A stretch of DNA of 64,000 nt from the sequence record DRR723986_576, one strand, 5' to 3'. A program made the position numbers and the translations under genes. A model generated the notes under the pieces. That model was not told where the DNA came from. It did not search any database and saw nothing but the letters and a program-made list of their open reading frames with translations. Numbering within the stretch: position 1 is the stretch's first letter; every line of letters starts with the position of its first letter. Shown in pieces: positions 14,390 to 38,254 of the stretch.

Positions 14390-15577
14390 TTAGCGAAAAA
14401 GACCAAGTCCGCCGGGGTAGTTGTATCCGGGAAATACCCTGGCGATATCGAGACGACTGCTTTGGGTCTGCAGCAACTCCGACAACACCTGGCGGTAATC
14501 CGTGGTGACCTGCAAGTCACCGCGATCGAGGTCATCGTCTTGCAAGCCGGGCCAGTCACTGACAACCTGCCCGCCATTGACGCCGGCGCCCATTAGTAAC
14601 ATGGCGTTGCCGTGACCGTGGTCGGTACCCAGCGATCCGTTCTCTGTCGCGCGACGACCAAACTCACTCATTGTTACCACCGTCACTCGCGACATGGCGT
14701 CGCCGAGGTCTTGCATGAAAGCCGCTAAGCCATCACCCATTGCCGCCAGGTTATTGCGCAACGCCCCGTTCTGATTCACATGGGTGTCCCAGCCACCAAT
14801 ATCAACACTGATAAATTCACTGCCTATATCCGCGCGAATCAACTGCGCAGCCTTACGCATATTTCGGGCAAAGGCATTGTTGGCGTATTGCGCGCCGTTT
14901 CGGGGCTCAAGTGACGCGGGATCGGCGGCGGCAAGCGCCTGCACAACATCCAACGACAAACGGCTTTGAATCGACAACGCCGTCTCGTCACCGTACATGC
15001 TGCGCACGGCGTCCAGGAAGTCATCTCCCTGCTTCACTATCGAATTGAAGCGGTCAAACTGCGCCAGCGCCAGTGGCGGCACCGGGCCCTGCAAACTCTG
15101 TGGTGCCGCAGAGGCGATGGCTACCGAGCGAAACGGCGACGCCGACGGACCGCTGTGAGTATGCGCAATGTGTCGACCAAGCCACCCGGTTAAGGTCGCA
15201 CTGGGGTCTTGAACACCACTTTCCATAATCGCCTGAGCATCAAAATGTGAACGGCTTTCATGGGGCGATCCAGCGGCGTGAACGGCGGCCATACGGCCGT
15301 TTTGCCAGGCGGGCAGCAGCCCAGCCAGCGACGGGTGTAAACCGAAGAAACCGTCCAGATCCAAGGCACCGTTGGATTGATCCGGCCGCGGCACTCTCAC
15401 CACCGGACGGCGCGCGTAGTAGTCGTCGCTGCCGTGGGGAACCACAACATTCAAGCCGTCCACCGCGCCGCGCATAAACACCACAACCATGGTGTGTTTT
15501 GCCGAGGTAAACTGGCTCTGCCTGCTCACCTCACTATCGACGAGGGTATTCCAAAGCTCTCGGCGAGTATAAGTCAT
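14390..15577 (-). CDS. DUF1501 domain protein
   Basis: MRGAVDGLN, RSHFDAQ, GGWDTH, SEFGRR..ENGSLGTDHGHG. Confidence 0.88.
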   Translation of the reverse strand: MTYTRRELWNTLVDSEVSRQSQFTSAKHTMVVVFMRGAVDGLNVVVPHGSDDYYARRPVVRVPRPDQSNGALDLDGFFGLHPSLAGLLPAWQNGRMAAVHAAGSPHESRSHFDAQAIMESGVQDPSATLTGWLGRHIAHTHSGPSASPFRSVAIASAAPQSLQGPVPPLALAQFDRFNSIVKQGDDFLDAVRSMYGDETALSIQSRLSLDVVQALAAADPASLEPRNGAQYANNAFARNMRKAAQLIRADIGSEFISVDIGGWDTHVNQNGALRNNLAAMGDGLAAFMQDLGDAMSRVTVVTMSEFGRRATENGSLGTDHGHGNAMLLMGAGVNGGQVVSDWPGLQDDDLDRGDLQVTTDYRQVLSELLQTQSSRLDIARVFPGYNYPGGLGLFR

Positions 15578-15608
15578 CGTATTTCCTTTCTTTTACTACC
15601 GAAGTCCA

Positions 15609-17309
15609 TCAACGCCGTTGGGCATAGGGAGAGATCAGCAACAGCGCCATTAAGCGCCGCCAAAATTGTTCGGTGGATGCCGCGCGTTCGCCGCTCGCGT
15701 GAGTCTGGGCAGCCGCCAGCAAACGGCTGGCCGTCGCGTCGTCGATATCGCGCATCAGCAACTTCCGGCGCATGGCCGCCAGTGCCTCGCCGGGGTCCTC
15801 CTGCTGGTCTGCAGCCCAGGCGGCGTTACTCACGCCCTCGCTGCGGGACTGCCCCGCGACACTGATAACGTGGCGCCAACGCTCGAGTAGGCCATTGACA
15901 CTGGCCCAGTAGCCCTCGCTATCCGGGTAGCCGTCGGGGCTAGGCCACTGAAAGGGAACATGGCCGGTACGCGAGATCATGCTGTCGCTATTCGGCCCTT
16001 CATAGGTCGGGTTCAGATCAATATCCAGCGGGTCCAGCAAGCCAAAGTCGAGCTCGGGCAGGGCATCAATATTCGCCAAACCCAACATACTGTAGAGATC
16101 GGGAATAGCCGAGGCCCGCAATAAATCCGACAAGGTGAGGCTGTCATTCATCTCCGGTTCCAGAGCGCGCACCAGCGCAATTGCGCTCTCTTGTGGCCGT
16201 GTCAGCTTTGCGTCTGCCGCATTTTGAAATTCCTCGCTACTAAATACCGCTCGAAGCATTGCCGGAATATCACCATGCTCCCCCCAGGCTGCCGCTACCG
16301 AGGAAATAAAGGCCTCCGGCGCAGCAGAATCGCGCACAAATCGCCGGTATAACTTACTGGCAATAAATCGCCGCGTTGAAGGGTGGGCGACGAGGATATC
16401 CAGCACTTGCTCACCATCTTCCATGCCTCTGCCTGCTGGCAGGGTGTGACCCAATACCCGCTTTTCGTTGCTATCGTGTTGTTCGCCGTCGAATAGAAAG
16501 CCGTGGTGGTTATTCGCCAAACACAAACGGTCGTCGCCATCGGTTTGAATACCCCAGCCGGTAAATGCCCGAGCAACTTCCCAGATATCGTCCTCGGTAT
16601 ACCCTCCACCCACACCCAATGTGTGTAGCTCCATCAGTTCGCGGGCGTAATTTTCGTTGGGGTGCTTTTTGGTGGAGCGACGATTATCCAAGTATTCCAA
16701 CATTGCCGGGCTTTTAGCTGACGCATTAAGTAAGCCGCGAAAACTTCCCAGCGCGTTTGCCCGAATAACATCGCGATCGTCCACCGTCTTCATGTGACGC
16801 GCAATGCCATCTCCGTGATAGATCGTGAAGTGATCGCTCCAAAAATCGACCATCACCTCAAACAACTGGCGACGGCTAAAAACCCGCCGAAACAGCGTCG
16901 CACTGCGCAGCTCTCGCATCGCCCGGCGATCATCATTGAGCTGAGCAAGGCGGCAGCCGTCGTAGTTGACCGTAGGCCAGCGGAAATTAACCTCTGCCTC
17001 AATGTCAGCGTCGCGCGCCGCCGACATCGACAGCTGCTGCTCAAGCCAGGCATTTGCGCCAGCTTCCGCCACTGCCTGCATACTTTGCGGTGTAGGCCCC
17101 CACGTGGCGCGTTTGAGCAAGTGTAGCTCTGCAGGTGCCGGGGGAAGATCGGGCTGGGGAGTATCTGCCGACGAAACTTCCGACATAATAACGTCGTTAG
17201 CTTCGTCATTATTTGTACTGCCGGCGCCACCTCCACCGCCGCCACAGGCCGTGGCGCCCAAGGCAACAACGGCGGCACTAGAACGAATAAAGTCTCTGCG
17301 GGAAGTCAT
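15609..17309 (-). CDS. DUF1800 domain protein, Tat lipoprotein
   Basis: SRRDFIR Tat motif plus ATAC lipobox; FWSDHF, YLDN, PNENYARELMELHTLG. Confidence 0.88.
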   Translation of the reverse strand: MTSRRDFIRSSAAVVALGATACGGGGGGAGSTNNDEANDVIMSEVSSADTPQPDLPPAPAELHLLKRATWGPTPQSMQAVAEAGANAWLEQQLSMSAARDADIEAEVNFRWPTVNYDGCRLAQLNDDRRAMRELRSATLFRRVFSRRQLFEVMVDFWSDHFTIYHGDGIARHMKTVDDRDVIRANALGSFRGLLNASAKSPAMLEYLDNRRSTKKHPNENYARELMELHTLGVGGGYTEDDIWEVARAFTGWGIQTDGDDRLCLANNHHGFLFDGEQHDSNEKRVLGHTLPAGRGMEDGEQVLDILVAHPSTRRFIASKLYRRFVRDSAAPEAFISSVAAAWGEHGDIPAMLRAVFSSEEFQNAADAKLTRPQESAIALVRALEPEMNDSLTLSDLLRASAIPDLYSMLGLANIDALPELDFGLLDPLDIDLNPTYEGPNSDSMISRTGHVPFQWPSPDGYPDSEGYWASVNGLLERWRHVISVAGQSRSEGVSNAAWAADQQEDPGEALAAMRRKLLMRDIDDATASRLLAAAQTHASGERAASTEQFWRRLMALLLISPYAQRR

Positions 17310-17418: not shown

Positions 17419-19707
17419 CTAAAGTGCGAACCGCAGCTCAGCACTGAACATGCGGGGCGGCATCAAAAATCCCATATGAGAGCCACTAAAGATGGGCATA
17501 TCTGCGGCAAAATGGCGGATGGTTTTGTTCTCCAGGTTTTTAATATGCCCCATAAATTGCCAACGGCCATTGGGATCGACGATGCCGGCATGAAGATTAA
17601 TCAGATGATACGCATCCTGGCTGTCGATGGGGTCGGCATCCAGGTCAAACAATATCCGGTCGCGCCAGCTCATATCAGCGCCGACCATCATGGCGACTTT
17701 TTCTTGCCACAACGGTACGGCAACATTAAAGCCGGCGGTGGCACTGATTTTCGGTGCGCGGGGTAGCTGCGATCCACTTAGATCGCAGGTTTCTTCATTG
17801 GATGACGCCGGGCAGGGCCCGTCTTTATAGCTGTCGAAGCGGGCATCGCTATAGCCCCAACTCGCAAAGAACTGGCTGCCACGCCAGGGCTGCCAACTGA
17901 TATCAATCTCCGCCCCCTCAGTGGTCGCCTTCGCGGCATTGTTCACAATAAAGCCGTTGCCGATAAATGCCTGTATCTGCATATCGCTAAATTCAGTGTG
18001 GTAGAGCGCGGTATTAATCGTAAGTACGCCGTCGTAGGCAGTGAGCTTGTAGCCCAGCTCATAGGCCTTGGCGCGTTCCTGATCAAAGCCGGACTCATCC
18101 GCCGTGCGTGCCAGCGGGTTATAGCCTCCCGCTTTAAATCCTTCTGAATAGCTGGCGTAGATCAAGTCGTCGTCCAGGCTGTATTTCATCGATAGCTTGG
18201 GGGCGATATTGGACTCTTCCCGCGTGTCCTTCAGCTGGTACTCGGTCACCCCGAAGGCGGACTGCAACAGCAAGCCGGTTTGCTCATAATTCTGGTCCAG
18301 GTCTACCTTTTTCTTTTCTTCCGATGCCCGCAAGCCAGCCACTAGGCTCAATCGGTCAGTGATATTCCAGGTGAGTTGCGAGAACAGCGCCAGGGTTTCG
18401 GTATGTTGAATAAAACGCTGGTGCAAGGCATCGGTGGTTAACGCGCCCAATAGATTATCGAGGGGGTCGAGCAATGGCGTCAGCACGCCGCCAAGCAGAT
18501 CGGTCACAACATCCAAACCGAGCGCAGGCAGTAACAAGCCCTGAAGTGGCCCTTTGGGCAGCATGCGCAGCTCGCCGGTTAGGTCGTTGTCAGACTGAAA
18601 CGCAAAGCCCCCCACTAGGTATTCCAGCTTTCCCGGCGGCGAACTCAAACGCAGCTCCAGCATTTGCTGGCGGTAGTCGGTTTCTCGCCCCCAGTCGGCG
18701 ATCGGTGCCGAGGCCGTATCAGCATCCAGATATAGCCATTCCTCGGCACGCGCGTCGCTGGCGATCAGCGTTAGCCGGTGCTCGGCGACATCCCAGTTCG
18801 CCTCCAGATTCCACACTTCGGTGTCGCTCCAGCTTTCATTCGGCGCGTCGGCGTGGCTGCGGTAATCAAAGTTGGCTTCCAGATTCGGGTCAAACAAACC
18901 GTGTACAAGAGCGGCGTCGCCACCCAGCACGAAGGGCTCCCATCCCTGACCGCTGTCGCGTGACTCGCCTTGGTAGTAGGTCAACACGGCCGTCAAGGTA
19001 TCCAGCGGCGTAAACAACATTTTGGCGCGCAGCCCCTCTTTGTCGACGCGCTTTTCATCTGTGCCGCGCAACACATTGTTTACATAGCCATCGCGGCGGT
19101 CGCTGGTTGCCGCGACGCGCAGAGCAAGCCGGTCTTCCACCAGCGGCGCATTGATCATGGCGTCATATTTTTCACCGGAAAACTGCCCATGAGCGGCGCT
19201 GGCCGATACCCGCCACTCTTCCTCAGGTTGAGCGGTACTGATGCTTATTGCACCGGCCACCGTATTTTTACCAAACAGTGTGCCCTGCGGCCCTTTCAAC
19301 ATTTCCACTCGGGCCAGATCGAGAAAGGCATCTTGCAAGAAGGCCATTTTTCCGTAGTAAATACCGTCCACATAGATCCCTACCGCCTGCTCCATGCCAT
19401 CATTAATCGGCGAGTTCAGGCCGCGCATGCCCACCTGCACATAGCCCGGGGTCATATTAATTTCCGTATTCGGGCTGGCCAGAGAAATATCTTCAAAAGA
19501 CGCGATGGCAGAATTTTTCATGCGCTCAGCACTGAGCACAGATACCGCGATGGGAACATCTTGAATCGACTCGGAACGCTTTTGCGCAGTAACGATCACT
19601 TCTTCGATATGAGAGGCGCGCTTGTGCTCTGCTGCCATTGCAGGTAACGCCAACAACTGACCAATAACCAGCCCACACAAGCAGTGCGTTTTCATTGCCT
19701 TGTTCAT
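17419..19707 (-). CDS. TonB-dependent receptor
   Basis: IEEVIVTAQKRSESIQDVP, KGPQGTLFGKN, GFKAGGYN. Confidence 0.92.
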   Translation of the reverse strand: MNKAMKTHCLCGLVIGQLLALPAMAAEHKRASHIEEVIVTAQKRSESIQDVPIAVSVLSAERMKNSAIASFEDISLASPNTEINMTPGYVQVGMRGLNSPINDGMEQAVGIYVDGIYYGKMAFLQDAFLDLARVEMLKGPQGTLFGKNTVAGAISISTAQPEEEWRVSASAAHGQFSGEKYDAMINAPLVEDRLALRVAATSDRRDGYVNNVLRGTDEKRVDKEGLRAKMLFTPLDTLTAVLTYYQGESRDSGQGWEPFVLGGDAALVHGLFDPNLEANFDYRSHADAPNESWSDTEVWNLEANWDVAEHRLTLIASDARAEEWLYLDADTASAPIADWGRETDYRQQMLELRLSSPPGKLEYLVGGFAFQSDNDLTGELRMLPKGPLQGLLLPALGLDVVTDLLGGVLTPLLDPLDNLLGALTTDALHQRFIQHTETLALFSQLTWNITDRLSLVAGLRASEEKKKVDLDQNYEQTGLLLQSAFGVTEYQLKDTREESNIAPKLSMKYSLDDDLIYASYSEGFKAGGYNPLARTADESGFDQERAKAYELGYKLTAYDGVLTINTALYHTEFSDMQIQAFIGNGFIVNNAAKATTEGAEIDISWQPWRGSQFFASWGYSDARFDSYKDGPCPASSNEETCDLSGSQLPRAPKISATAGFNVAVPLWQEKVAMMVGADMSWRDRILFDLDADPIDSQDAYHLINLHAGIVDPNGRWQFMGHIKNLENKTIRHFAADMPIFSGSHMGFLMPPRMFSAELRFAL

Positions 19708-19976: not shown

Positions 19977-19992
19977 TATCAAGTCGCTCGTT

Positions 19993-20529
19993 TTAAACGG
20001 GTTTAACAACCGCGAGGTAAAGAACCAATAAGCCGGTGACTGAAATTACCGGCGTACTCACTACTAAGAACAACCAATGATGGGCGATGGCCTGTTCGTA
20101 GCTCAGGGCGACATCCCCCTGCCCCGACACGCGAATAGCGCGCTTGTTACCACCGAAATGCGACAACCAATAATCCATGGCCTCAATAGGCAGAAACACC
20201 AGCACCACGATGCACAACTTTAGGCTAAGCCAGAAATGTGCCAGCCCCCAGGGGCCAGCCGTCAGCAGCAACAAACCACTTAGCAGCAATAGCGGAAAAG
20301 CCACGTGCTCCAGTACCACGCCCTGATCAAAGCGCTCCATGGCAATATTGCGCTGACGCAGCAAGCGCTCGTCGTCCGGCGCGCGCTGCCAGGCCTTAAT
20401 CGCCGGCAGCAGGTAATTGATATAGGCCACTGATGTGCTGGCCAACCAGATCATCGCACAGGCCACATGGAAAAATTTTATTTGCAGATAGTAGGGCACC
20501 AGCGCTGCAGATAATTGCTCAACAAACAT
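19993..20529 (-). CDS. Hypothetical 4-TM membrane protein (DUF2269-like)
   Basis: IKFFHV.. N-terminal helix and ..LAVVKPV C-terminus typical of DUF2269/CopD-like proteins. Confidence 0.7.
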   Translation of the reverse strand: MFVEQLSAALVPYYLQIKFFHVACAMIWLASTSVAYINYLLPAIKAWQRAPDDERLLRQRNIAMERFDQGVVLEHVAFPLLLLSGLLLLTAGPWGLAHFWLSLKLCIVVLVFLPIEAMDYWLSHFGGNKRAIRVSGQGDVALSYEQAIAHHWLFLVVSTPVISVTGLLVLYLAVVKPV

Positions 20530-20603: not shown

Positions 20604-20620
20604 TGTCAATATATTTGACT
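20604..20620. promoter_or_regulatory. Shared palindromic operator copy 1 (TGTCAA-N5-TTGACT)
   Basis: tgtcaa tatat ttgact; motif recurs at 27674, 29507, 34476 and 34577. Confidence 0.7.
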
Positions 20621-20634: not shown

Positions 20635-21201
20635 ATGGGCGACCCGCAGCCACAAAAAAGCCGCAAATCAAAAACGCAGTTTATTCACGCCGCACTGGAA
20701 ATACTGGCCGATGAGGGCAACGTGAAAGCGCTGACCATAGACAGCCTATGCCAGCAGCTGGGTGTTTCTAAGGGGAGCTTTTACTGGCACTTCAAAGGGC
20801 GGGCGCAACTGATCGAGGCGCTGGTGGCGTTTTGGGCCGACGAGTTTCAGCAGAGCATTCATCAGCGCATTCGCCAAAGTGCCCACGACAAACCCGAGCG
20901 CGCGTTTGAAGAGCTAATCGGCTTCTGGCTGAGCAGTAATTTCTCGCGCCTGGATCAAGTCATGCGCAATTGGGCGCGCGAAGAAGACGCCGTCGCCGCG
21001 GCCGTGCACCATGCCGACCAACTGCTAATGAACTTTGTCGCGCAGCTGTTTGTCGCCATGGGCAATGACGAGATCGAAGCCCATCACCGAGCACGCTTAT
21101 TAATCGCAGTGGGTATCGCTGAACCACAAATCCAGCACCTGCCACACGCCGGTAGTGCCGACGAGGCAGCGCGCTGGGTCGCCACCAAACTACTCCGCTA
21201 G
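20635..21201 (+). CDS. TetR/AcrR family regulator
   Basis: LGVSKGSFYWHFKGR HTH. Confidence 0.9.
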   Translation: MGDPQPQKSRKSKTQFIHAALEILADEGNVKALTIDSLCQQLGVSKGSFYWHFKGRAQLIEALVAFWADEFQQSIHQRIRQSAHDKPERAFEELIGFWLSSNFSRLDQVMRNWAREEDAVAAAVHHADQLLMNFVAQLFVAMGNDEIEAHHRARLLIAVGIAEPQIQHLPHAGSADEAARWVATKLLR

Positions 21202-24937: not shown

Positions 24938-24984
24938 GTTGTTCTCCTTATTGTTGTATTGCTTGTTAAAACACATTCAGCTCA

Positions 24985-27559: not shown

Positions 27560-27673
27560 ATTCTTCTCTTTATCTGCGCTGTTAGGGAGCCACTGCACAA
27601 GCCGCCGAACCCTCAAGAGGTATATTGCAGAGGCCTGCTAGTTCTTGCTTATACAATCAACATGATTCATTAT

Positions 27674-27690
27674 TGTCAAGTATATTGACT
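27674..27690. promoter_or_regulatory. Shared palindromic operator copy 2
   Basis: tgtcaa gtata ttgact between the divergent ACAD and VOC genes. Confidence 0.75.
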
Positions 27691-29506: not shown

Positions 29507-29523
29507 TGTAAACTATATTGACA
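29507..29523. promoter_or_regulatory. Shared palindromic operator copy 3
   Basis: tgtaaa ctata ttgaca between marR and the hydrolase gene. Confidence 0.7.
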
Positions 29524-30785: not shown

Positions 30786-31925
30786 TTACCGGCTGGGATT
30801 AATCAGGTATTTCTTGCCGGTGGCCTGCTGGCTGTACTCAGCGACCACATCGGCCTGCAATACATCCAGCAGCGACACTTCATCGCTGTAGTGGCTGGCA
30901 AAGGTGGTGTGTAGCTCATCGGCCACGCGCTGGCGCAATTCGCCGGCGCGCTCCGGCCCGACCTTGGCAATAAACGGCGTCAACAGCCAGGCATTAATGC
31001 CCCAACTAAAGCCGAAGTTGCGATGGACAATGGTCGGCGACAAATCCAGGCTGCCGTAGATGTAGAGCTGCTTGAAAGTATCGGAGCCATACGGCCCCGG
31101 CAGGGCAACCTCTTTCAGCGCCGCTTTTTCCATGCAGGTGAGAATACGGCTACCCAGCTCACCGCCGCCAGTGGCGTCAAACGCCAGGTAGGCTCCCGTC
31201 TCTTCAATCGCCCGGGTCAGGTCGCTCATAAAGCTGTCGTCGCTGGAATTGCAGACGTATTTGGCGCCCTGGGATTTCAGCAACTCAACCTGCTCGGGCT
31301 TACGCACAATATTAATGAGATCAATGCCATCTTTCTGGCAGACACGGTTAAGCATCTGCCCAAGATTGGACGCCGCCGCCGTGTGGATCAGCGCCTTGAA
31401 ACCTTCGCGACGCATTGTCTCAACCATACCCAGTGCCGTCAGGGGGTTCACAAAGCAGGACGCGCCGTCGCGGGCCGAGGTGCCCTCATTCAATGGCAGA
31501 CACTGCATCACATTCACTTTGCGGTACTGGCAGTAAAGCGCGCCGTCCATCACCGCCACGGTTTTACCCAACAGTGCCTGCGCAGCGGCACTGGCACCGG
31601 CCTTGACCACGGTGCCCGCCCCTTCATTTCCCGCCGCCAGCGGCTTGCCAATTCGCGGTTTAACGCGGCCCTCCAGGCCAGGGCGCAGTTTGGCGGTGTA
31701 CACGGTATCGACACCACTGCCCGTGGTTTTGCCGGTGCTGACATCGGCGGGGGCAATCAGTGTGGCCTGATCCGAGGGGTTGATGGGGGTCGCCTCAATG
31801 CGCACCACCACCTCATCGTCGCCTGGCTCGGGGATCGGCGAGGATTTCAGTATCAGTTTGAGGTAGCCGTCGTCGGTGACCAGCGAGCGCAGTTGCAGGC
31901 CGGTATCGGGAAGCGTGTCGTGCAT
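30786..31925 (-). CDS. MDR superfamily zinc-independent oxidoreductase (enoyl/alkenal reductase-like)
   Basis: ATPINPSD, GNEGAGTV, FVNPLTA, AAASNLGQML. Confidence 0.85.
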   Translation of the reverse strand: MHDTLPDTGLQLRSLVTDDGYLKLILKSSPIPEPGDDEVVVRIEATPINPSDQATLIAPADVSTGKTTGSGVDTVYTAKLRPGLEGRVKPRIGKPLAAGNEGAGTVVKAGASAAAQALLGKTVAVMDGALYCQYRKVNVMQCLPLNEGTSARDGASCFVNPLTALGMVETMRREGFKALIHTAAASNLGQMLNRVCQKDGIDLINIVRKPEQVELLKSQGAKYVCNSSDDSFMSDLTRAIEETGAYLAFDATGGGELGSRILTCMEKAALKEVALPGPYGSDTFKQLYIYGSLDLSPTIVHRNFGFSWGINAWLLTPFIAKVGPERAGELRQRVADELHTTFASHYSDEVSLLDVLQADVVAEYSQQATGKKYLINPSR

Positions 31926-32006: not shown

Positions 32007-34394
32007 TCACCACTGATAATTCAGCGAGGCAAAAATTTTCCGCATCGACTTCTGCCGGGTGTTGTAAGTGCCGGGGAAAAACACGGTATCGAGCACTTGC
32101 CCCAGCACTTCTTCGTCGGTGAGGTTGCTGCCGCCAACGGTAATTGCCCAGCCGGAATCCAACGATGCCAGGCTCACCCGCGCCGACACGGTGGTGTAGC
32201 CCGGCGAAAAGGTGTTTTTATCCAGGTCGCCGTCGGTGTATTGATCGCCTTGGTAAAGAATATCGACGCTGGTACTCATGGCTAAGCCGAAGACCGGGAA
32301 CTCCAATGTTGGAGTAAAGCTGGCGGTTTCTTTGGGGGCGAAGGAGATGCGTCGACCGCCAAGGTCTTGCTGGGCGTCGACACCTTCATTAATCGGCGCT
32401 GGCGCGGCGGGGTAACTGTCGTAGCGCGCATCCAACAGGCCTACAGAACCGGCAAGGCGCAGAAACGGCATTGGCGTGATCCACATAACGTCCATTTCAA
32501 GGCCGTCAGAGGTGGCGGTAGCGGCGTTTTTTACATCGAAGAAGGCACCGTTGAAGGCCAGCACTTGCAGATTTTCAAACTGAGTTTGGTACACGGCGAG
32601 GTTAAAACGCAGGGTGTTATCCAAGAAGCTGCCTTTTAAACCGGCCTCGACGGTGACGGCTTTTTCGGGCTCGAAATTGAGGTCTTCACCACCGAAGGAC
32701 GAGGCATTAAAGCCACCACTTTTGTAACCGCGGGCGTAGCTGATAAAGACATTGGTGTCTTCGTTCAAATAGTACTGAAGCGACAGCTTGGGCGACAAAT
32801 CGCTCTCTTCGCGCTCGATCCCTTCCTCCTGATATTCCTCGGCGCTTAGCGCGGTGCCCATCAAACACGGCAGCCCCAGGTTGCCAGTGCGGCAGCGCGA
32901 GGTGCCCGAGGCGTCGGCAGTTTTGGTTTCGCGGCTGTAGCGCAGCCCGGGAGTGAGTACCCACTTATCGGTGATGTACCAGCTGAATTGGGCAAAGGCC
33001 GCGTAGGCTTCCACATCCAGAAAGTAGTCCAGCAGGTAGCTGTCGTCGCCAATCAAGGTGGAACCCAGACCGGAGATCAAGCCCAAGCCCGCCAGGTTTA
33101 AACCGCCGAGCAAGCCGCCTGAGCCGGCATTGGTATTGCCACTGATCAGTTGCAGGGCGTCGTCGGTGGTGAGGTAGGCCAGCAGGTCGTCGCCGGCGGT
33201 AATTTGCGTTTGTTGTTCAAATTCCGAATGCAGAGCGTAAATACCGGCAACCAGATTAACGCCCTCGCCCAACCCGAAAAGGCTCTCGCTGCTGGCAGTA
33301 AACCGAAGCTCCAGCGACTGCTGATTGTAGTCCGAGGTCACGGCTAGTTTGGCAAGGTCGGCAGGGGAAGCGTCGAGGTCGACAAGGCTGTCGATGTATA
33401 ACTCGCTGTCGGCAACAATTAATGTCAACGCGCTGTTCTGCAATCCGGCCACGTCGCCCAGCTGCCACTCACTTAGCAATGACAGGCTGTCGGATGCTTT
33501 TTCGATAAAGCCCGGCACATTGTAGGAGCTGCGAAAGTCGTAGGGATTGTCTTCAATATTCGGGTCGTAGTTTTCAAGAAAGGTGCGGGTGTCGTCGTCC
33601 AGTTTGAAGATTTGCAGTCCCCAGTAATTGGCCATGGTTTCCGATTGGTAGGCATTCAGCTCCATATGCAGCGAATCGCTGGGGTCGAAAAAGATCTTCA
33701 AACGCTGGGCATTTTGTTCGTGTTGATCGTCGCGGCGCTGCAAAAACTGGTTATACAGGTCACCCTCTTTGTCGCGGTCCATCGCCGAAAAGCGCAGCGA
33801 AAGGTGGTCGCCCACGCCACCGGCTACGGCCGCTTCCAGGTAGCGCTCATCGGCGTCGTTTTCCTGCCATTGCAGTTTCCCGGAGAAGTCGTCGGTGGGG
33901 TCAGCCGAGCTAACATTGAATACGCCCGCCACGGTGTTTTTTCCAAACAGGGTGCCCTGCGGCCCGCGCAGGACTTCTATACGGGCAATATCGAACATGG
34001 CTTCGCTAAAGTATGAAGGGCGGTTGTAAAACACCTCGTCCTGCACGAAACCCACCGAGCTTTCGAAAGCGGCATTCAGCGGGTTGGAGCCAAAACCGCG
34101 AATATTTACCTGGGTAAGTGCCGGATCGGTATCGGAGGAAAAGCGCACATTGGGCATATACGGGGCGAGGTCTTGCAGGTTAACCGCGCCCACTTCTTTC
34201 ATAAATTCGCCGCTCACGGCGGTGAGCGAGATGGGCACATCCTGAGACGATTGCTCGACTTTCTGCGCGCTAACGATGACCTCCTCCAACACCCGGCGCT
34301 CTTTTACCGGCGCGGAAAACGCGTTGTGAGCCGTCAGTATTAGTGCAATGGCTACGCAGTGAGGACGTAACGATGTACTGCTGTTGATAAACAT
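32007..34394 (-). CDS. TonB-dependent receptor
   Basis: LEEVIVSAQK, RGPQGTLFGKN, GYKSGGFN, C-terminal YQW. Confidence 0.92.
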   Translation of the reverse strand: MFINSSTSLRPHCVAIALILTAHNAFSAPVKERRVLEEVIVSAQKVEQSSQDVPISLTAVSGEFMKEVGAVNLQDLAPYMPNVRFSSDTDPALTQVNIRGFGSNPLNAAFESSVGFVQDEVFYNRPSYFSEAMFDIARIEVLRGPQGTLFGKNTVAGVFNVSSADPTDDFSGKLQWQENDADERYLEAAVAGGVGDHLSLRFSAMDRDKEGDLYNQFLQRRDDQHEQNAQRLKIFFDPSDSLHMELNAYQSETMANYWGLQIFKLDDDTRTFLENYDPNIEDNPYDFRSSYNVPGFIEKASDSLSLLSEWQLGDVAGLQNSALTLIVADSELYIDSLVDLDASPADLAKLAVTSDYNQQSLELRFTASSESLFGLGEGVNLVAGIYALHSEFEQQTQITAGDDLLAYLTTDDALQLISGNTNAGSGGLLGGLNLAGLGLISGLGSTLIGDDSYLLDYFLDVEAYAAFAQFSWYITDKWVLTPGLRYSRETKTADASGTSRCRTGNLGLPCLMGTALSAEEYQEEGIEREESDLSPKLSLQYYLNEDTNVFISYARGYKSGGFNASSFGGEDLNFEPEKAVTVEAGLKGSFLDNTLRFNLAVYQTQFENLQVLAFNGAFFDVKNAATATSDGLEMDVMWITPMPFLRLAGSVGLLDARYDSYPAAPAPINEGVDAQQDLGGRRISFAPKETASFTPTLEFPVFGLAMSTSVDILYQGDQYTDGDLDKNTFSPGYTTVSARVSLASLDSGWAITVGGSNLTDEEVLGQVLDTVFFPGTYNTRQKSMRKIFASLNYQW

Positions 34395-34475
34395 AGGCAC
34401 CCATCTTTTCTATTATTATTGTTGTTGCGTTTGAGCCATCCGGTGCAGTGAAGCGCCTTGCACGGCCCGAATTAA

Positions 34476-34492
34476 TGTCAACTAAGTTTACA
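34476..34492. promoter_or_regulatory. Shared palindromic operator copy 4
   Basis: tgtcaa ctaag tttaca upstream of the TBDR. Confidence 0.7.
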
Positions 34493-34576: not shown

Positions 34577-34593
34577 TGTCAATATTATTGACA
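34577..34593. promoter_or_regulatory. Shared palindromic operator copy 5 (perfect half-sites)
   Basis: tgtcaa tatta ttgaca upstream of the GST operon. Confidence 0.78.
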
Positions 34594-34614
34594 TAATAAC
34601 AAACGAGAGCTGCG

Positions 34615-35346
34615 ATGATCGACTTACATACGGTGCCAACCCCCAACGGCCACAAGATTTCTATTGCGCTGGAAGAGCTGGGCTTGGACTATCGCGTAAT
34701 TCCCTACGATATTAGCCAGGGCGACCAGTTTAGCCCCGAGCTATTGGCCTTAAACCCCAACAACAAGCTGCCGGTGATTGTCGATAACGATGCCGAAGGC
34801 GGGCCGATCACAGTGTTTGAAAGCGGCGCGATTCTGATTTACCTGGCAGAGAAAAGCGGCCAGCTGCTATCTCGCCAGCCCAGCCAGCGCTACGCCGAGC
34901 TGCAATGGCTGATGTTTCAAATGGCGGGCGTTGGGCCGCTGCAGGGTCAGGCCCACCACTTCGTGCGTTACGCTCGTGAAGAGCAGCCCTATTCCAAACA
35001 GCGCTACCTGCAGGAAAGCCTTCGCCAGTGCCGGGTGATTGAATCGCAGCTTAGCCAGCAGCACTATATCGCCGGAGAGCAATTCTCCGTTGCCGATATC
35101 GCACTGTGGCCGTGGCTGCGCGCCCTGCCACTGATTGGCATTCACCCCGAACAGACTTTTCCCGGTATTCATCGCTGGTTTAATGCGCTGGCAGAGCGAC
35201 CGGCCTTTCAGCGCGGTAAGGATGTCATCAACGGCTGGGTATATGACCTGCCGCCGAACTTCTATATGGAGCTGGACGATAAGACCTGGTCTTACTCCTT
35301 TGGCGAGGAGCAGTACAAGGAACGCGAACGGGGGCAGCAAGCGTGA
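34615..35346 (+). CDS. Glutathione S-transferase (YfcG/Nu class)
   Basis: TPNGHK, NPNNKLPVI, FESGAILIYLAEK. Confidence 0.9.
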   Translation: MIDLHTVPTPNGHKISIALEELGLDYRVIPYDISQGDQFSPELLALNPNNKLPVIVDNDAEGGPITVFESGAILIYLAEKSGQLLSRQPSQRYAELQWLMFQMAGVGPLQGQAHHFVRYAREEQPYSKQRYLQESLRQCRVIESQLSQQHYIAGEQFSVADIALWPWLRALPLIGIHPEQTFPGIHRWFNALAERPAFQRGKDVINGWVYDLPPNFYMELDDKTWSYSFGEEQYKERERGQQA

Positions 35347-36104
35347 CAGATTTATTCTCGGTAAGCAGCAAAACCGTATTCATAAGTGGCGGCTCTCGCG
35401 GCATTGGCGCCATGTTGGCAGAGGGCTTTGTTAACGCCGGCGCCAAGGTGATTATCAGCGCACGAAAAGCGGCAGAACTTCACGCACGCTGTGCACACTT
35501 GCAAACGCTGGGCGACTGCACCGCTATTGAAGCGGATCTGTCCACCCAGCAAGGCGTGGAAGCGCTCGCCGCCGCCATCACATCGCTCACCCCAAGGCTG
35601 GATATTTTGATTAATAATGCCGGGGCCAGTTGGGGCGCTGATATCGACAGCTTTCCCGAGTCGGGCTGGGACAAGGTGATGAATTTGAATGTGAAGTCGG
35701 TCTTCTTCCTCAGCCAACAATTACTGCCACTACTCAAGAACGCCGCCGCCGAAGACAGGCCCGCCCGCATTATTAATATTGCCTCGGTGTATGGCATGGT
35801 TCACTCGGCGCTAAAAACCTATTCCTACGGCGCCAGTAAAGCGGCGGTAATCCAGTTGACCCGTCAACTCGCGGCCGACCTGGCCAACGCCCACATTAAT
35901 GTAAACGCCATCGCGCCGGGCTATTTCCCCAGCGATATGACCGCGCCGCTGGATGACCAGTCGTTACTGCAAAGCATCCCGCTGCAACGTATGGGCAGCG
36001 CCGATGATATTGCGGGGACGGCAATTTTTTTGGCCTCCGCCGCGTCGAATTATATGACCGGCAGCACCTTGGTACTCGACGGTGGTATTGTCGCCAGTCG
36101 CTAA
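35343..36104 (+). CDS. SDR oxidoreductase (RhlG-like)
   Basis: SGGSRGIG, NNAG, YGASKAA. Confidence 0.9.
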   Translation: MTDLFSVSSKTVFISGGSRGIGAMLAEGFVNAGAKVIISARKAAELHARCAHLQTLGDCTAIEADLSTQQGVEALAAAITSLTPRLDILINNAGASWGADIDSFPESGWDKVMNLNVKSVFFLSQQLLPLLKNAAAEDRPARIINIASVYGMVHSALKTYSYGASKAAVIQLTRQLAADLANAHINVNAIAPGYFPSDMTAPLDDQSLLQSIPLQRMGSADDIAGTAIFLASAASNYMTGSTLVLDGGIVASR

Positions 36105-36134
36105 CAACTCGATCGTGAATACAGCAGGTATGTT

Positions 36135-37334
36135 ATGAACAATGCGCTTTCCGGATTGCGGGTATTGGACCTGACCCATATGTTGTCCGGCCCTTATTGC
36201 ACGATGATATTGGGCGACATGGGTGCGGAGATGATCAAGGTGGAGCCGATTGCTGGCGAAGGCACGCGCAAGTTGTTGGCCACCGACCCCGAGCACTCCA
36301 TTGACGGCATGGGCGCCTACTTTATTACGCTGAATCGCAATAAAAAAAGTATCGCCATCGACCTGAAAAGCGAGGACGGACTGGCGCTGTTTTACTCGCT
36401 GGTTGAGCAGGCCGATATCGTTGTGAATAACTATGCCGCCGGCGTGCCGGAAAAACTCAAGATCGATTACCCGCGGCTCGCCGAGATCAACCCGCGTATT
36501 ATCAGTTGCTCCATTACCGGCTTTGGCGAACAGGGGCCGGGTGCCAAACGGCCCGCCTTTGATCAGGTTGCCCAGGCCTACGGCGGCGGCATGTCGATTA
36601 CCGGCGAAGACGCGTCGCAGCCGATGCGCGCCGGCATTCCGATTGGCGACCTTGGCGGCGGCATGTTTGGTGTGATGGGCATATTGTCGGCGGTGATCGA
36701 ACGCTATCAATCGGGCCGTGGTCAGCACGTGGACATTTCCATGCTGGATGCGCAAATCTCCCTGCTTAATTACATGGCGACCATGCACTTTATGTCGGGG
36801 AACAACCCCCACCCCATTGGCAACAGCCACTTTGTGCATGTGCCCTACAACAGTTACCCCACTGCCGACGGCCACCTGGTCATTTGCGTGATTACCGATA
36901 ATTTTTGGCACAATTTAAAAGGCCTTCTGCACTGTGAGGCACTGGAAAAGCCCGAATACGACACCCAACCGGGACGCCTTGCAGACAAAGCCTTTATCGA
37001 TGCCACCCTGGCCGATATTTTCCGCAGTCAGAGCACCGCGTACTGGATGGAAAAGCTGAATGCGCAACGCATACCTGCCGCGCCGGTGAATACTTTTTCC
37101 CAGGCCTTGAACGACGAACAAGTGCTGCACAGAAATATGGTGGTCGACCTTGCCCACCCCAACGGTCAAACCACCAAGGGGCCCGGCTGCCCGATTAAAT
37201 TGTCGCGCAGCGAAGAGAGTGCCTACACCCCCGCCCCGCTTCTTGGCCAGGACACCCAACACATTCTCAGCGAGATGCTAGCGATGCCGGACGATGAGAT
37301 AGCGCGCCTGCGCAGCAACGGCATCATCGCCTGA
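36135..37334 (+). CDS. CaiB/BaiF (class III) CoA-transferase
   Basis: LSGLRVLDLT..GPYC, NRNKKS, SITGFG. Confidence 0.9.
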   Translation: MNNALSGLRVLDLTHMLSGPYCTMILGDMGAEMIKVEPIAGEGTRKLLATDPEHSIDGMGAYFITLNRNKKSIAIDLKSEDGLALFYSLVEQADIVVNNYAAGVPEKLKIDYPRLAEINPRIISCSITGFGEQGPGAKRPAFDQVAQAYGGGMSITGEDASQPMRAGIPIGDLGGGMFGVMGILSAVIERYQSGRGQHVDISMLDAQISLLNYMATMHFMSGNNPHPIGNSHFVHVPYNSYPTADGHLVICVITDNFWHNLKGLLHCEALEKPEYDTQPGRLADKAFIDATLADIFRSQSTAYWMEKLNAQRIPAAPVNTFSQALNDEQVLHRNMVVDLAHPNGQTTKGPGCPIKLSRSEESAYTPAPLLGQDTQHILSEMLAMPDDEIARLRSNGIIA

Positions 37335-37348
37335 CAGGAGTAACCGCC

Positions 37349-38254
37349 ATGGAAAAAGTATGGGTAAGAGATGTTGGCCCCCGCGACGGCTTGCAGAATC
37401 AAACTCAGGTTCTTGACCCCAAGCAGCGCCTGCAACTTATTCAGGCCTTGCTGTCAGCAGGGCTAACCCAGATTGAAGTGGGCGCTTTTGTATCGCCGCG
37501 CGCCGTTCCCGCCATGGCAGACAGCGACCACGTGGTGAGCGCCCTGGCAAATACCACCGGTGAATTTTCGGTGCTGATTCCGAATGAGAAGGGCTACGAC
37601 TTGGCGACCGCAGCCGGCGCACGCCACATCGCTATTGTGGTGGCCAGCAGCGAGACCATGAATCAAAAGAATATTGGCATGAGCAACGAACAGGCCTTCC
37701 GTTTTGCCAAAACAGTACTGACCAGAGCCAGCCACGATGGCGTGCATGCCAGCTGCTATATCGCCACCGCGTGGGAATGCCCTTTTGAAGGGAGCATTAA
37801 TGAAGACATTATCCTGCAACAAGCCGAAGTATTAATCGCCGCAGGCGCAAAAGAAATTGTATTAGCCGATACGATTGGTGCAGCGACGCCGCAGCAATCT
37901 GCAGCTCTAACTAATAAAATATGTCGCGAATTTGGTAGCGCTTTAATCGCCTGCCACTTTCACGACACCCGAGGCATGGGCATCGCCAATGCCTATGCTG
38001 CACTCGAAAGCGGTGTGCGGCGCTTTGACGCGTCTATTGCAGGCTTGGGGGGATGCCCTTTTGCACCGGGAGCCTCGGGAAATATTGCCACGGAAGATCT
38101 AGTGCTGATGCTGAATCAGCAAGGCTACAACACGGGAATTTCCCTGGCGGGTTTGGCAGCGGCGGCCAAGCTGACCCGGCAATGGTTACCGGGCGTTGGC
38201 TTGGCTAAGTCCACGCAGTGGATTGAACGGCAGATAGGAAAAGGCGCTCTCTAG
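37349..38254 (+). CDS. HMG-CoA lyase family protein
   Basis: DVGPRDGLQN, HFHDTRG, GLGGCPFAPGASGN. Confidence 0.9.
   Translation: MEKVWVRDVGPRDGLQNQTQVLDPKQRLQLIQALLSAGLTQIEVGAFVSPRAVPAMADSDHVVSALANTTGEFSVLIPNEKGYDLATAAGARHIAIVVASSETMNQKNIGMSNEQAFRFAKTVLTRASHDGVHASCYIATAWECPFEGSINEDIILQQAEVLIAAGAKEIVLADTIGAATPQQSAALTNKICREFGSALIACHFHDTRGMGIANAYAALESGVRRFDASIAGLGGCPFAPGASGNIATEDLVLMLNQQGYNTGISLAGLAAAAKLTRQWLPGVGLAKSTQWIERQIGKGAL

Follow-up and report, generated by a model that had tools for sequence, protein, structure and literature searches.

What does a marine bacterium do with about 20 neighbouring genes that have one predicted repressor-binding site in common? The window, that is, the whole analysed stretch of DNA, is one strand of DRR723986_576 (64,000 nucleotides), and an earlier note read positions 14390 to 38254 as one block for taking up, detoxifying and catabolising oxidised or electrophilic lipids. 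We found every gene family that it had listed at its expected place by Pfam and NCBIfam profile matches (Table 1). The best explanation, which we hold tentatively, is that a single repressor-controlled regulon spans about 17.4 to 38.3 kb and would import and catabolise a hydrophobic acid with a para-dihydroxy (quinol) ring. The families are assigned by profile match; what we infer is which protein binds the operator, all substrates and the sequence of steps.

Table 1. Genes and operator copies of the block, with positions in the window.
Feature	Position	Strand	Basis or remark
DUF1501 and DUF1800 genes	14390..17309	-	Pfam; within the block of the earlier note, regulon membership not supported
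TonB-dependent receptor 1 (TBDR1)	17419..19707	-	Plug and beta-barrel domains
Small membrane ORF, 90 aa	19704..19976	-	Stop overlaps TBDR1 start codon
h178, integral membrane protein	19993..20529	-	Weak UPF0093/HemJ-like match
O1 TGTCAATATATTTGACT	20604..20620		h178/TetR intergenic; same place in G040, G025, G026, G020
TetR-family regulator	20635..21201	+	TetR_N domain; second candidate binder
Cytochrome P450	21190..22551	-	Pfam p450 E 4e-69; last gene of ACAD operon
Acyl-CoA ligase, LvaE position	22564..24123	-	NCBIfam PRK06187, 503 bits, above 476 cut-off
SDR, LvaD position	24167..24976	-	Pfam adh_short
DUF6285 protein, 127 aa, LvaB position	24985..25368	-	Pfam DUF6285 E 2.4e-22
APH-family kinase, LvaA-like	25371..26357	-	Pfam APH E 2e-33
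ACAD10/11/LvaC-type acyl-CoA dehydrogenase-fold enzyme (ACAD; predicted phosphate eliminase)	26354..27616	-	ACAD11 relative
O2 TGTCAAGTATATTGACT	27674..27690		ACAD/VOC intergenic
VOC-fold, homogentisate-dioxygenase-like ring-cleavage enzyme (putative)	27732..28319	+	Model, Foldseek, family profile
WrbA-like flavoprotein	28356..28922	-	NCBIfam PRK03767 E 8e-20; co-transcribed with MarR
MarR-family regulator	28959..29417	-	Pfam MarR_2
O3 TGTAAACTATATTGACA	29507..29523		MarR/hydrolase intergenic; kept in Spongiibacter and Zhongshania loci
Alpha/beta hydrolase (HYD), 390 aa	29562..30734	+	Uncharacterised, highly conserved subfamily
MDR-superfamily reductase	30786..31925	-	Downstream of TBDR2; no zinc motif
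TonB-dependent receptor 2 (TBDR2)	32007..34400	-	Plug and barrel domains
O4	34476..34492		TBDR2/GST intergenic, paired with O5
O5	34577..34593		TBDR2/GST intergenic, perfect palindrome
YfcG-like (Nu-class-like) glutathione transferase (GST)	34615..35346	+	NCBIfam PRK13972 E 1.5e-57; PDB 5hfk E 4.5e-58
SDR2	35343..36104	+	Pfam/NCBIfam SDR
Class III CoA-transferase	36135..37334	+	Pfam CoA_transf_3, 412.7 bits
HMG-CoA-lyase-subfamily lyase	37349..38254	+	NCBIfam PRK05692, 309.7 bits, above 246 cut-off

The shared operator claimed for the block is real: TGTCAA-N5-TTGACA, a 17-bp palindrome, occurs five times in the window with at most one mismatch, against 0.08 copies expected from shuffles (five copies were reached in 0 of 100 shuffles). 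All five copies are intergenic and lie in the four promoter regions of divergent gene pairs from 20.6 to 34.6 kb, with their centres 23 to 50 bp 5' of the plus-strand start codons. The 3.4-Mb genome G001 has seven sites in total, five of them inside this same 14-kb stretch. Genome-wide, sites with at most one mismatch are no commoner than those of a reversed control (7 vs 6 in G001 and 9 vs 11 in G015); hence, the evidence rests on position, not number.

Position is conserved. Operator sites in G040, G025 and G026 are at the same places as in the window. In the related genome G020, the block is spread over three loci (1.819, 1.911 and 2.926 Mb) up to 1.1 Mb apart, each of which retains the operator at the same intergenic place, as do two loci in G016. 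TBDR1, with orthologues of 55 to 99% identity in 20 of 40 family genomes, remains with h178, the operator and the TetR gene where it is unlinked from the rest (G020), and in G020, G016, G025 and G040 the TBDR2 orthologues (60 to 98% identity) have the GST operon and two operators beside them. The tandem O4/O5 pair is also present in these four genomes and in loci L013 and L014, and G026 has one operator site at TBDR2. Hence, the regulon is conserved, and its genes co-occur or remain co-regulated in other genomes, in support of the earlier note. Its left end did not hold: the DUF1501 and DUF1800 genes have no operator upstream in the scan of the window and are missing beside the TBDR1 orthologue in all five other genomes examined (G040, G025, G026, G020 and G016), so the supported block begins at about 17419 and runs to 38254. 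Between TBDR1 and O1, the small membrane ORF has counterparts of 40% identity at the corresponding position of G040 and of G025, and no Pfam family was found for it; h178 has no Pfam match above threshold (weak UPF0093/HemJ-like match, E 2e-4), and 12 of 80 loci have a copy of at least 35% identity no more than 10 kb from the VOC gene.

These 80 loci, which were found with the VOC protein, hold 102 operator sites with at most one mismatch, of which 74 are outside called ORFs by crude ORF calls that leave only 11% of bases uncalled. TTGACA is identical to the consensus of the sigma-70 -35 box, which counts against our reading, and promoter-like matches use the half-sites. Instead of a dedicated operator, the palindrome might be a pair of -35 boxes set back to back in divergent promoters, or TetR might bind it in place of MarR; we think both very unlikely. 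Consistent with -35 boxes, 44 of the 102 sites are between divergent genes, but the 25 sites between co-directional genes also retain the two half-sites with their 5-bp spacer, as do the tandem pairs upstream of TBDR2.

As for the binder, MarR is the most likely protein and would also repress its own gene. An operator copy (at most two mismatches) precedes the VOC homologue by no more than 260 bp in 49 of the 80 loci, that is, in 39 of 46 loci with MarR and 10 of 34 without among Alpha- and Gammaproteobacteria. The resulting table (MarR and operator, 39; MarR only, 7; operator only, 10; neither, 24) overstates independence because the loci are interrelated. In favour of TetR, its gene adjoins O1 in every genome with TBDR1-h178, always divergent from them in the genomes compared, and a different TetR is near the operator in L017, L021, L023 and L026; three operator-bearing loci have such a different TetR and lack MarR up to a distance of 10 kb, which counts against MarR control. 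However, the site tracks MarR presence, and an orthologue of the window's TetR is near the VOC gene in only three of the 80 loci.

The structure model of the VOC protein (pLDDT 92.9) has as best Foldseek match 9u42, the Acinetobacter VOC-type homogentisate 1,2-dioxygenase, a function given in the cited part of PMC13572102. The family profile fits 9u42 over its full length (E 6e-40), and 9u42 has every His, Tyr and Glu that is invariant in the family (H18, H19, H64, H98, H129, Y136, Y138 and E146). By profile and model, then, the protein is a homologue of homogentisate dioxygenase; identity to the characterised enzyme is only 29%, which counts against our reading. A glyoxalase, as the earlier note had labelled it, was considered and rejected on this profile fit, glyoxalase I GloA2 coming only at Foldseek rank 29. 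The start codon may be Met7, at 27750. Neither canonical hmgA nor HPPD was found in G001, so the VOC enzyme would not serve tyrosine breakdown.

The gene is paired with that of the 390-aa hydrolase: the two are no more than 10 kb apart in 71 of the 80 loci, and in 49 of those 71 the VOC gene is directly upstream. The hydrolase has invariant S122, D333/D334 and H363 and a model with pLDDT 92.6, and the fold search returned only generic lipases and esterases (TM at most 0.5 normalised by model length), which counts against our reading. On Sagittula and Neorhizobium plasmids, an FAD monooxygenase precedes the hydrolase within p-hydroxycinnamoyl-CoA hydratase/lyase clusters, and the Neorhizobium cluster also holds a VOC homologue. 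Brevundimonas and sphingomonad loci have an ACAD-fold monooxygenase with a flavin reductase, and FadL/TodX, MAPEG, GST, DoxX, CMD and OsmC are neighbours in other loci.

These two proteins bear on the earlier proposal that aliphatic oxidised lipids (4-hydroxyalkenals, oxylipins, furan fatty acids or gamma-lactones) are taken up and detoxified. VOC would then be a glyoxalase-like isomerase and the hydrolase a lipase or a lactonase, and 4-hydroxy acids would go to the Lva module. We consider this proposal unlikely. It gains from the hydrolase's nearest folds, which are monoacylglycerol lipases, from the class-2 lipase and OsmC added in Alcanivorax-type loci, and from the SMP-30 lactonase in sphingomonad loci. 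G025 also favours it: in this genome (100% complete), MarR and the hydrolase are kept, as are the Lva genes, the two receptors and the GST operon, and the search for VOC, in which G001, G040 and G026 scored strongly as positive controls, gave only one weak relative (E 1.1e-7; 30% identity), which is about 52 kb away. Hence, ring cleavage by the VOC protein would be dispensable in G025, and this counts against our reading. Against it, the next solved match of the VOC family after the dioxygenase, an unannotated glyoxalase-family protein, reaches only 4.9e-11. Where a second-ligand Glu would stand, the residue varies across the alignment (E, R, K, G or Q). In Sagittula and Neorhizobium, moreover, the hydrolase stands beside ring hydroxylases in aromatic clusters. 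Together, the VOC homology and these clusters tell against lipid-peroxidation products and point to an aromatic para-diol or quinone intermediate instead; the ene-dione and 4-oxo/4-hydroxy intermediates proposed earlier still fit.

The lva-like run (22564-27616; ACAD, APH, DUF6285, SDR and ligase) was read correctly. The best solved relative of the ACAD protein is mouse ACAD11 (E 2.7e-73; 250 bits vs 159 for SCAD), and the alignment has R...HCMR and the catalytic-Asp motif DGPDEVH, features named in the cited part of PMC12440821. By this signature, the run is a true ACAD10/11/LvaC-type unit for 4-hydroxyacyl-CoA. Such a unit is the established route by which 4-hydroxy acids are handled, those derived from 4-hydroxynonenal among them, and to that extent it agrees with aliphatic substrates as well. 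The APH kinase matches the ACAD11 kinase domain weakly (E 2.5e-7) and has a copy no further than 10 kb from the VOC gene in 37 of the 80 loci, with the DUF6285 gene after it in many. We liken the DUF6285 protein to LvaB by gene position and by the description of LvaB as the 12-kDa partner of LvaA (in the cited part of PMC6692424), not by sequence; for what LvaA to LvaE do, we follow the relevant parts of PMC6692424, PMC11342911 and PMC12440821. The SDR at the LvaD position is not conserved (at least 35% identity in 4 of 80 loci). The G040 operon is without it, and G040 also has no HMG-CoA-lyase-like gene, which counts against our reading.

The P450 at the end of this operon has CYP120A1 (2ve3) as its best solved relative (E 1.5e-47). 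CYP120A1 binds retinoic acid, and such a relative suits an isoprenoid acid equally, which counts against a quinol substrate. The regulon might, in that case, degrade isoprenoid or terpenoid acids or lactones, such as apocarotenoid, retinoid-like or phytol-derived compounds: the P450 would hydroxylate, the Lva module get round a block posed by a 4-hydroxy group or lactone, the HMG-CoA-lyase-like enzyme take off a beta-methyl branch, and VOC and the hydrolase act on a non-aromatic ring. Taxadiene hydroxylase and CYP51 are further near solved relatives of the P450, its nearest NCBIfam models are terpene oxygenases, and a homologue of the lyase (at least 35% identity) is near the VOC gene in 28 of the 80 loci. 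Many of the host genera are known for degrading hydrocarbons in the sea: Zhongshania, Alcanivorax and Ketobacter. We nevertheless judge isoprenoids quite unlikely, since no Atu/Liu-type acyl-CoA carboxylase was found in the block with Pfam, the VOC active-site residues are by alignment those of a para-diol dioxygenase, and the P450 orthologue of G020 is elsewhere with no clear operator.

The WrbA-like flavoprotein scores 71.5 bits, below the 141-bit equivalog cut-off. The MDR reductase has weak Pfam matches, fits the NCBIfam PIG3 quinone-oxidoreductase family (E 5e-17) and has GNEGAG in place of the GHE motif of zinc alcohol dehydrogenases. Of the electrophile-handling set in the earlier note, quinone and thiol families do accompany the module, but WrbA (confined to near relatives: 2 of 80 loci at 35% identity or more, plus G040), MDR (L008 only among the 80, with a 97%-identical copy in G040) and P450 (4 of 80, not conserved with the core) are lineage-specific additions, and this counts against our reading too. 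Overall, the regulon, the lva-like module and the quinone/thiol families of the earlier interpretation stand; the glyoxalase role and electrophile genes as its core do not.

A quinone-sensing MarR could instead control stress defence, as in the MhqR systems of Bacillus and Staphylococcus, with the catabolic genes merely co-controlled neighbours. The same set is present here: MarR, VOC dioxygenase, alpha/beta hydrolase and quinone reductase. This architecture agrees with mhqRED, azoR2 and mhqNOP, which are under one promoter-overlapping palindrome in the cited part of PMC6798810, and DoxX, CMD, OsmC and MAPEG are neighbours at other loci. Such defence seems improbable as the main role: two conserved importers, the CoA ligase, CoA-transferase, lyase and Lva module are nutritional functions, conservation is lowest for the quinone reductases, and the operator is unlike that of MhqR as far as the cited text gives it.

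SDR2 is kept in the GST operon in G020, G016 and G040, and the nearest NCBIfam model of the CoA-transferase is succinyl-CoA:mesaconate CoA-transferase (305.8 bits, below the 700 cut-off).

Across the regulon, the operator overlaps the promoters of eight transcription units. For quinol catabolism, we propose that the substrate is a hydrophobic carboxylic acid bearing, or converted to, a quinol ring. The two TonB-dependent receptors would take it up across the outer membrane, the P450 may hydroxylate it, and the ligase would form its CoA ester. The WrbA-like and MDR reductases may reduce the auto-oxidisable quinone form, and the YfcG-like GST may contribute thiol chemistry or isomerisation. VOC would then open the ring in the manner of homogentisate dioxygenase, and the 390-aa hydrolase would hydrolyse the ene-dione or enol-lactone product. 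The resulting 4-oxo/4-hydroxy-acyl-CoA would go to beta-oxidation, the APH kinase (with DUF6285) phosphorylating it and the ACAD10/11/LvaC-type enzyme eliminating the phosphate; last, the class III CoA-transferase and HMG-CoA-lyase-like enzyme may cleave a small tertiary-hydroxy diacid. Beyond this block, the VOC protein and its hydrolase are a little-studied enzyme pair found in many bacteria.

We established the gene content of the window by ORF listing with Pfam and NCBIfam scans, and all of the families named in the earlier note, which had proposed uptake and detoxification of oxidised or electrophilic lipids, were present. The table gives each gene with the number of loci holding a relative of its product, among loci found through homologues of the VOC-fold protein (VOC).

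Genes of the block and its flanks; counts are loci with a match to the window protein at 35% identity or more, among the best 80 of 128 VOC loci
Feature	Position	Strand	Remark	Loci (of 80)
dctP	13246-14388	+	TRAP transporter binding-protein gene	
DUF1501 and DUF1800 genes	14390-17309	-		
TBDR1	17419-19707	-	TonB-dependent receptor	2
90-aa membrane ORF	19704-19976	-	stop overlaps TBDR1 start	
h178	19993-20529	-	178-aa membrane protein without family	12
TetR gene	20635-21201		divergent from h178/TBDR1 group	3
Six-gene operon	27616 to 21190	-	ACAD, APH kinase, DUF6285, SDR (LvaD-like), acyl-CoA ligase, P450	20, 37, 18, 4, 12, 4
VOC	27732-28319	+	after ACAD operon	
MarR	28959-29417	-	with WrbA-like; after VOC	46
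WrbA-like flavoprotein		-	with MarR	2
HYD	29562-30734	+	390-aa alpha/beta hydrolase; after MarR/WrbA pair	71
TBDR2		-	TonB-dependent receptor; after HYD	5
MDR reductase		-	with TBDR2	1
Four-gene operon	ends 38254	+	YfcG-like GST, second SDR, class III CoA-transferase, HMG-CoA-lyase-subfamily enzyme	6, 9, 13, 28
4HBT (hotdog) thioesterase, 129 aa, and 286-aa SDR	38271-39556	-	between lyase and dctM	
dctM, dctQ	39635-41537	-	TRAP transporter membrane genes	

The VOC search, with one genome per species, returned 128 relatives; for the 80 best, we took the locus with flanks of up to 10 kb, and contig ends truncate 25 of these 80 loci. The nearest is that of Neomelitea salexigens DSM 19753, whose proteins are 90-100% identical to those of the window. 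We found the hydrolase HYD directly downstream of VOC in 49 of the 71 loci with both genes; in a further 16, the two share a strand and are no more than 2.5 kb apart. Hence, by the locus counts, the deep core is VOC followed by HYD. Across the 80 loci, only close relatives have the exact gene set described in the earlier note.

A repeat search gave an inverted match between two intergenic regions, and reading of the intergenic DNA then yielded the palindrome TGTCAA-N5-TTGACA, a predicted operator. At one mismatch or fewer, we found five copies in the window relative to 0.08 expected, a number reached by 0 of 100 shuffles; at two mismatches or fewer, there were 7 matches relative to 2.0 expected. 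The five sites sit in four divergent promoter regions, h178/TetR, ACAD/VOC, MarR/HYD and TBDR2/GST (two sites), with centres 23-50 bp upstream of the + strand start codons, and they overlap promoter-like hexamers. In the nearest available genome, G001 (3.4 Mb, 99% complete), 7 sites have at most one mismatch; 5 of them fall within the same 14 kb, and the genome-wide count of 7 is no excess over the 6 for a reversed control pattern. Hence, the evidence for the operator is the position of the sites and not their number.

Placement was also informative among the 80 VOC loci, where 102 sites have at most one mismatch and 74 of these fall outside crude ORF calls that leave only 11% of bases uncalled; intergenic sites fall between divergent genes in 44 cases and between co-directional genes in 25. 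Hence, site placement counts against the palindrome being mere back-to-back -35 boxes. Sites are kept in loci of Woeseiaceae, Caulobacter, Brevundimonas, Hyphomonas and several sphingomonads. In the Woeseiaceae locus L026, a wax-ester synthase/DGAT gene (17931-19421) follows MarR directly behind a perfect operator copy, and this lipid-storage enzyme may be under the same control in that lineage.

HYD occurs in 22 of 40 genomes of the host's family (14 of the 25 of high quality). In 4 of the 22 (G001, G040, G025 and G026), a single contig carries HYD, the P450 orthologue, TBDR1 and TBDR2 in a stretch of 16-18.3 kb, and the fragmented G032 is probably a fifth genome with these four clustered. 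In G040, G025 and G026, sites occupy the same intergenic positions as in the window. G025 retains the remainder of the block; its VOC relative is only weak and ~52 kb away, in a search that was strong for positive-control genomes. As side observations, the HYD orthologue is in two pieces in G005 (G005:C43:137539-138854) and has an in-frame TAG in G013 (G013:C10:11609-12769), which could reflect gene decay in some relatives or assembly error.

In the remaining family genomes with HYD, orthologues are dispersed, and we examined three of these. G020 has three loci on one contig: DUF6285-APH-ACAD, a site, and VOC, then MarR, a site and HYD (2.926 Mb); lyase-CoA-transferase-SDR-GST, two sites and TBDR2 (1.819 Mb); and TBDR1-h178, a site and TetR (1.911 Mb). 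For the P450 orthologue of G020, we found no clear site. G016 has the first two loci as in G020, and its site at the third has two mismatches. G015 is weaker, with a one-mismatch site beside VOC-HYD and otherwise only a two-mismatch site, between TBDR2 and GST. Hence, the co-occurrence that the earlier note asked to be checked in other genomes holds for three modules, each keeping its sites when dispersed (G020 and G016).

Metatranscriptome contigs from three studies (libraries X15, X16 and X17), most of them 95-99% identical to the window, cover parts of the P450, ligase, SDR, ACAD, VOC, WrbA-like, MarR, MDR, GST and CoA-transferase genes and the HMGL/SDR3 end. Since these libraries can contain DNA and contig depth cannot rank genes, the contigs are no evidence of co-induction. 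In a further run whose kind we could only guess (X14), overlapping contigs cover 19553-38500 whole in the same gene order at ~93-96% identity; here the complete block belongs to another strain or species.

The left end of the block had been placed at the DUF1501 and DUF1800 genes, which does not stand: these genes are lineage-specific by comparison with the genomes of relatives and were dropped as regulon members, and dctP directly abuts TBDR1 in G040. In both the window and G040, the block is flanked by dctP and, at its opposite end, by dctQM. The TRAP binding-protein gene and membrane genes thus face each other across ~25 kb with the whole block between them, and the TRAP system might be the inner-membrane importer of the same acid as the regulon. 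No operator at two mismatches or fewer was found beside the TRAP transporter genes. The 4HBT thioesterase and 286-aa SDR are kept in G040 at 84-89% identity, and a degenerate operator, left half only, lies at ~39620, just upstream of the pair.

Of the 80 loci, 39 have both MarR and a site with at most two mismatches in the 260 bp upstream of VOC, 7 have MarR but no such site, 10 have the site but no MarR, and 24 lack both; these counts are not independent because the loci are related to one another. In Alcanivorax and Moraxellaceae loci, a GntR regulator replaces MarR and the site is absent. Three loci with the operator lack MarR within 10 kb and have another TetR regulator. MarR itself has no NCBIfam match, and its best solved relative is uninformative (E 2.6e-4). 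Taken together, MarR is likely the protein that binds the operator.

The predicted structure of VOC is confident (pLDDT 92.9). We found that the profile of aligned VOC homologues matches 9u42, reportedly the VOC-type homogentisate 1,2-dioxygenase of Acinetobacter (Seo et al. 2025), over its full length (positions 12-183, E 6e-40), with all later matches of the profile search at E of 4.9e-11 or above, and Foldseek gave E 2.9e-15 with a TM of 0.83 on the target. VOC is 29% identical to this characterised dioxygenase, and its invariant residues (H18/H19, H64, H98, H129, Y136/Y138 and E146) are all common to 9u42. The full-length sequence and fold match and the shared metal and active-site residues place VOC in the VOC-type homogentisate 1,2-dioxygenase subfamily. 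Homologues of VOC begin near its second Met, with GGGAGA ~9 nt upstream of 27750, so the gene probably starts there rather than at 27732.

Two other roles for VOC were rejected. The earlier note had taken it for a glyoxalase-type electrophile handler; however, the top folds are dioxygenases, with GloA2 only at rank 29 (E 1.4e-7, Foldseek), which argues against glyoxalase I. The available part of PMC13572102 describes the Acinetobacter 9u42 protein as acting as a homogentisate dioxygenase despite its glyoxalase-like sequence. A tyrosine-pathway dioxygenase was rejected because the 99% complete G001 gave no match to canonical hmgA and no HPPD above the cut-off; rather than in a tyrosine/homogentisate context (HPPD, isomerase, FAH), VOC sits next to the alpha/beta hydrolase and Lva genes.

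The homogentisate pathway proceeds through a dioxygenase, a GST-type isomerase, a hydrolase and a CoA-transferase. The window has the same logic of steps, with the same VOC subfamily and also a GST, a hydrolase and a CoA-transferase. In contrast, its hydrolase is of the alpha/beta fold and not of the FAH family, and its GST is YfcG-like and not a zeta-class maleylacetoacetate isomerase (maiA 64.9 bits, below the cut-off of 171). The GST is most similar to YfcG (PDB 5hfk, E 4.5e-58), which fits the Nu class (YfcG/YghU), and scores 194.5 bits against NCBIfam PRK13972, below the equivalog cut-off of 332. Hence, the GST is Nu-class-like and not an equivalog. Similarly, the flavoprotein is only WrbA-like (71.5 bits against an equivalog cut-off of 141), whereas the lyase exceeds the PRK05692 cut-off (309.7 against 246 bits) and thus belongs to the HMG-CoA lyase subfamily.

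HYD has an invariant Ser-Asp-His set and a confident predicted structure (pLDDT 92.6). Its solved relatives by sequence are only weak (E 0.0019), its fold matches are to generic alpha/beta hydrolases only, and in the protein atlas it falls only in unnamed alpha/beta hydrolase clusters. The family is large, with at least 7994 protein clusters at E of 1e-10 or below among 8000 candidates scored.

We found HYD in other catabolic settings. Plasmids of Sagittula stellata E-37 and Neorhizobium petrolearium carry a HYD that is 54% identical and comes after an FAD-dependent monooxygenase, in clusters that also hold p-hydroxycinnamoyl-CoA hydratase/lyase, an ADP-forming CoA ligase and ACADs; the N. petrolearium cluster includes a VOC homologue as well (37% identical). 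Plasmid pJE1 of Sphingomonas sp. JE1 has HYD in the vicinity of a P450, a receptor and a VOC homologue (33%). Further neighbours in alphaproteobacterial loci are a sulfatase and an ACAD-fold monooxygenase with its flavin reductase, and those in other loci are FadL/TodX, MAPEG, GST, DoxX, CMD, OsmC and SMP-30 lactonase. Steroid degradation has a module of hydroxylase, extradiol dioxygenase and C-C hydrolase, HsaAB/HsaC/HsaD, and Brevundimonas and sphingomonad loci resemble it in grouping the ACAD-fold monooxygenase, flavin reductase, VOC and HYD. However, VOC (single-domain, ~190 aa) and HYD (390 aa) differ in size from HsaC and HsaD, and none of the other genes of steroid degradation was seen.

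The best solved relative of the window ACAD is mouse ACAD11 (E 2.7e-73, 250 bits relative to 159 for SCAD), and the alignment (...RRLGPGRIFHCMR... and ...DGPDEVH...) has the Arg...HCMR helix and the catalytic Asp. These two features, the Asp standing for the usual Glu, mark ACAD10, ACAD11 and LvaC in the available part of PMC12440821. The window ACAD thus carries the LvaC/ACAD10-11 signature, as does an ORF in 16 of the 80 related loci. The kinase has an APH domain (E 2e-33), a weak match to the ACAD11 kinase domain (E 2.5e-7) and the 127-aa DUF6285 protein directly downstream. By sequence, ACAD, APH kinase, DUF6285, SDR and ligase are a predicted Lva-type unit, with the Lva roles taken from the accessible parts of PMC6692424 and PMC11342911; the SDR is missing in G040. 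Like lvaABCDE of Pseudomonas putida and mammalian ACAD10/ACAD11, the unit combines a ligase and an SDR with an APH-family kinase, its putative small partner and an ACAD-fold enzyme bearing R...HCMR and catalytic Asp. Unlike lvaABCDE, its order is C-A-B-D-E plus P450, its SDR is not conserved in relatives, and it sits among receptors, a dioxygenase-hydrolase pair and a lyase. Control also differs, LvaR being of the sigma-54 type as far as PMC6692424 was available, relative to a MarR/TetR-type operator here. As given in the portions consulted of PMC12440821, PMC11342911 and PMC6692424, the Lva/ACAD10-11 route converts 4-oxo or 4-hydroxy acids via 4-phosphoacyl-CoA to 2-enoyl-CoA.

G001 has four P450 genes matching that of the window at 36-98% identity, and most family genomes have two to five; hence, family genomes carry multiple P450 paralogues. 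The conserved membrane protein h178 always precedes TBDR1 and has a sub-threshold match (E 2e-4) to UPF0093, the HemJ family, which hints at a redox or haem-binding membrane partner of the receptor.

The MhqR regulon of Bacillus subtilis and Staphylococcus aureus, in the part of PMC6798810 available, has a MarR repressor, a palindromic promoter operator, a VOC dioxygenase, an alpha/beta hydrolase and quinone reductases, and the gene content and operator positions of the window match this architecture. The same part of PMC6798810 gives the operator as TATCTCGAA-aTCGAaATA, which does not agree with TGTCAA-N5-TTGACA, and the regulators do not pair as orthologues. The hydrolase subfamily also differs, and the window regulon includes import and CoA-dependent catabolism. 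The dioxygenases differ in size class, since the VOC profile matches the 338-aa chain 1zsw, which may be an Mhq-type dioxygenase, only over residues 246-297.

We read the recurring logic as a ring hydroxylase, whose type varies, with a para-diol dioxygenase-like VOC and a hydrolase, beside CoA-dependent steps and under a MarR repressor. Homogentisate-type cleavage of a quinol with a propionate side chain would give a fumarate-type diacid and a 4-oxo acid. VOC would cleave such a quinol, yielding a 4-oxo acid of the kind that the Lva unit consumes, and the WrbA-like and MDR reductases and the GST would, by analogy with the MhqR regulon, handle the quinone/quinol couple. Citramalate-type tertiary hydroxy acids are handled by a class III CoA-transferase paired with an HMG-CoA-lyase-family enzyme. 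The ene-dione and 4-oxo/4-hydroxy intermediates of the earlier note are therefore kept, with ring fission replacing lipid peroxidation as their likely source. Counting against ring fission, VOC is only 29% identical to the characterised dioxygenase, G025 combines an otherwise retained block with no more than a weak, distant VOC relative, and the nearest solved relative of the P450 is CYP120A1; a P450 of that kind would suit an isoprenoid acid.

Tentatively, and considering it unlikely, we propose that VOC-HYD is the core of an undescribed, widespread ring-cleavage pathway for homogentisate homologues, that is, quinols whose side chain is propionate or longer and which could derive from phenylpropanoids, phenolic lipids or prenylquinone/tocopherol-type compounds. 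Its 4-oxo/4-hydroxy products would be natural substrates of Lva/ACAD10-11-type kinase and eliminase, with TonB import in marine Spongiibacteraceae and one MarR operator from Gamma- to Alphaproteobacteria. The parts are known families, and the logic has known analogues in Lva, MhqR and the homogentisate pathway. Literature searches aimed at these component systems, with most subscription journals outside their scope, did not meet the VOC-HYD pair, its link to an Lva unit or the cross-class MarR operator; for bacterial tocopherol/plastoquinone catabolism, the matches listed held only plant papers, which does not show that nothing is in print.

These results provide a testable lead on regulation, an explicit operator with a candidate regulator, for a regulon that is conserved in two classes of proteobacteria, and they place the recently recognised fold of VOC-type homogentisate dioxygenase in a second genomic context. 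They also suggest a testable function for HYD, a very common unnamed hydrolase family for which we found no close solved structure. If the ring-fission source is true, bacterial counterparts of ACAD10 and ACAD11 may draw natural substrates from it. Since carriers of the regulon include marine Zhongshania, Spongiibacter, Alcanivorax and Halieaceae, the pathway may be relevant to marine turnover of phenolic or quinone lipids.
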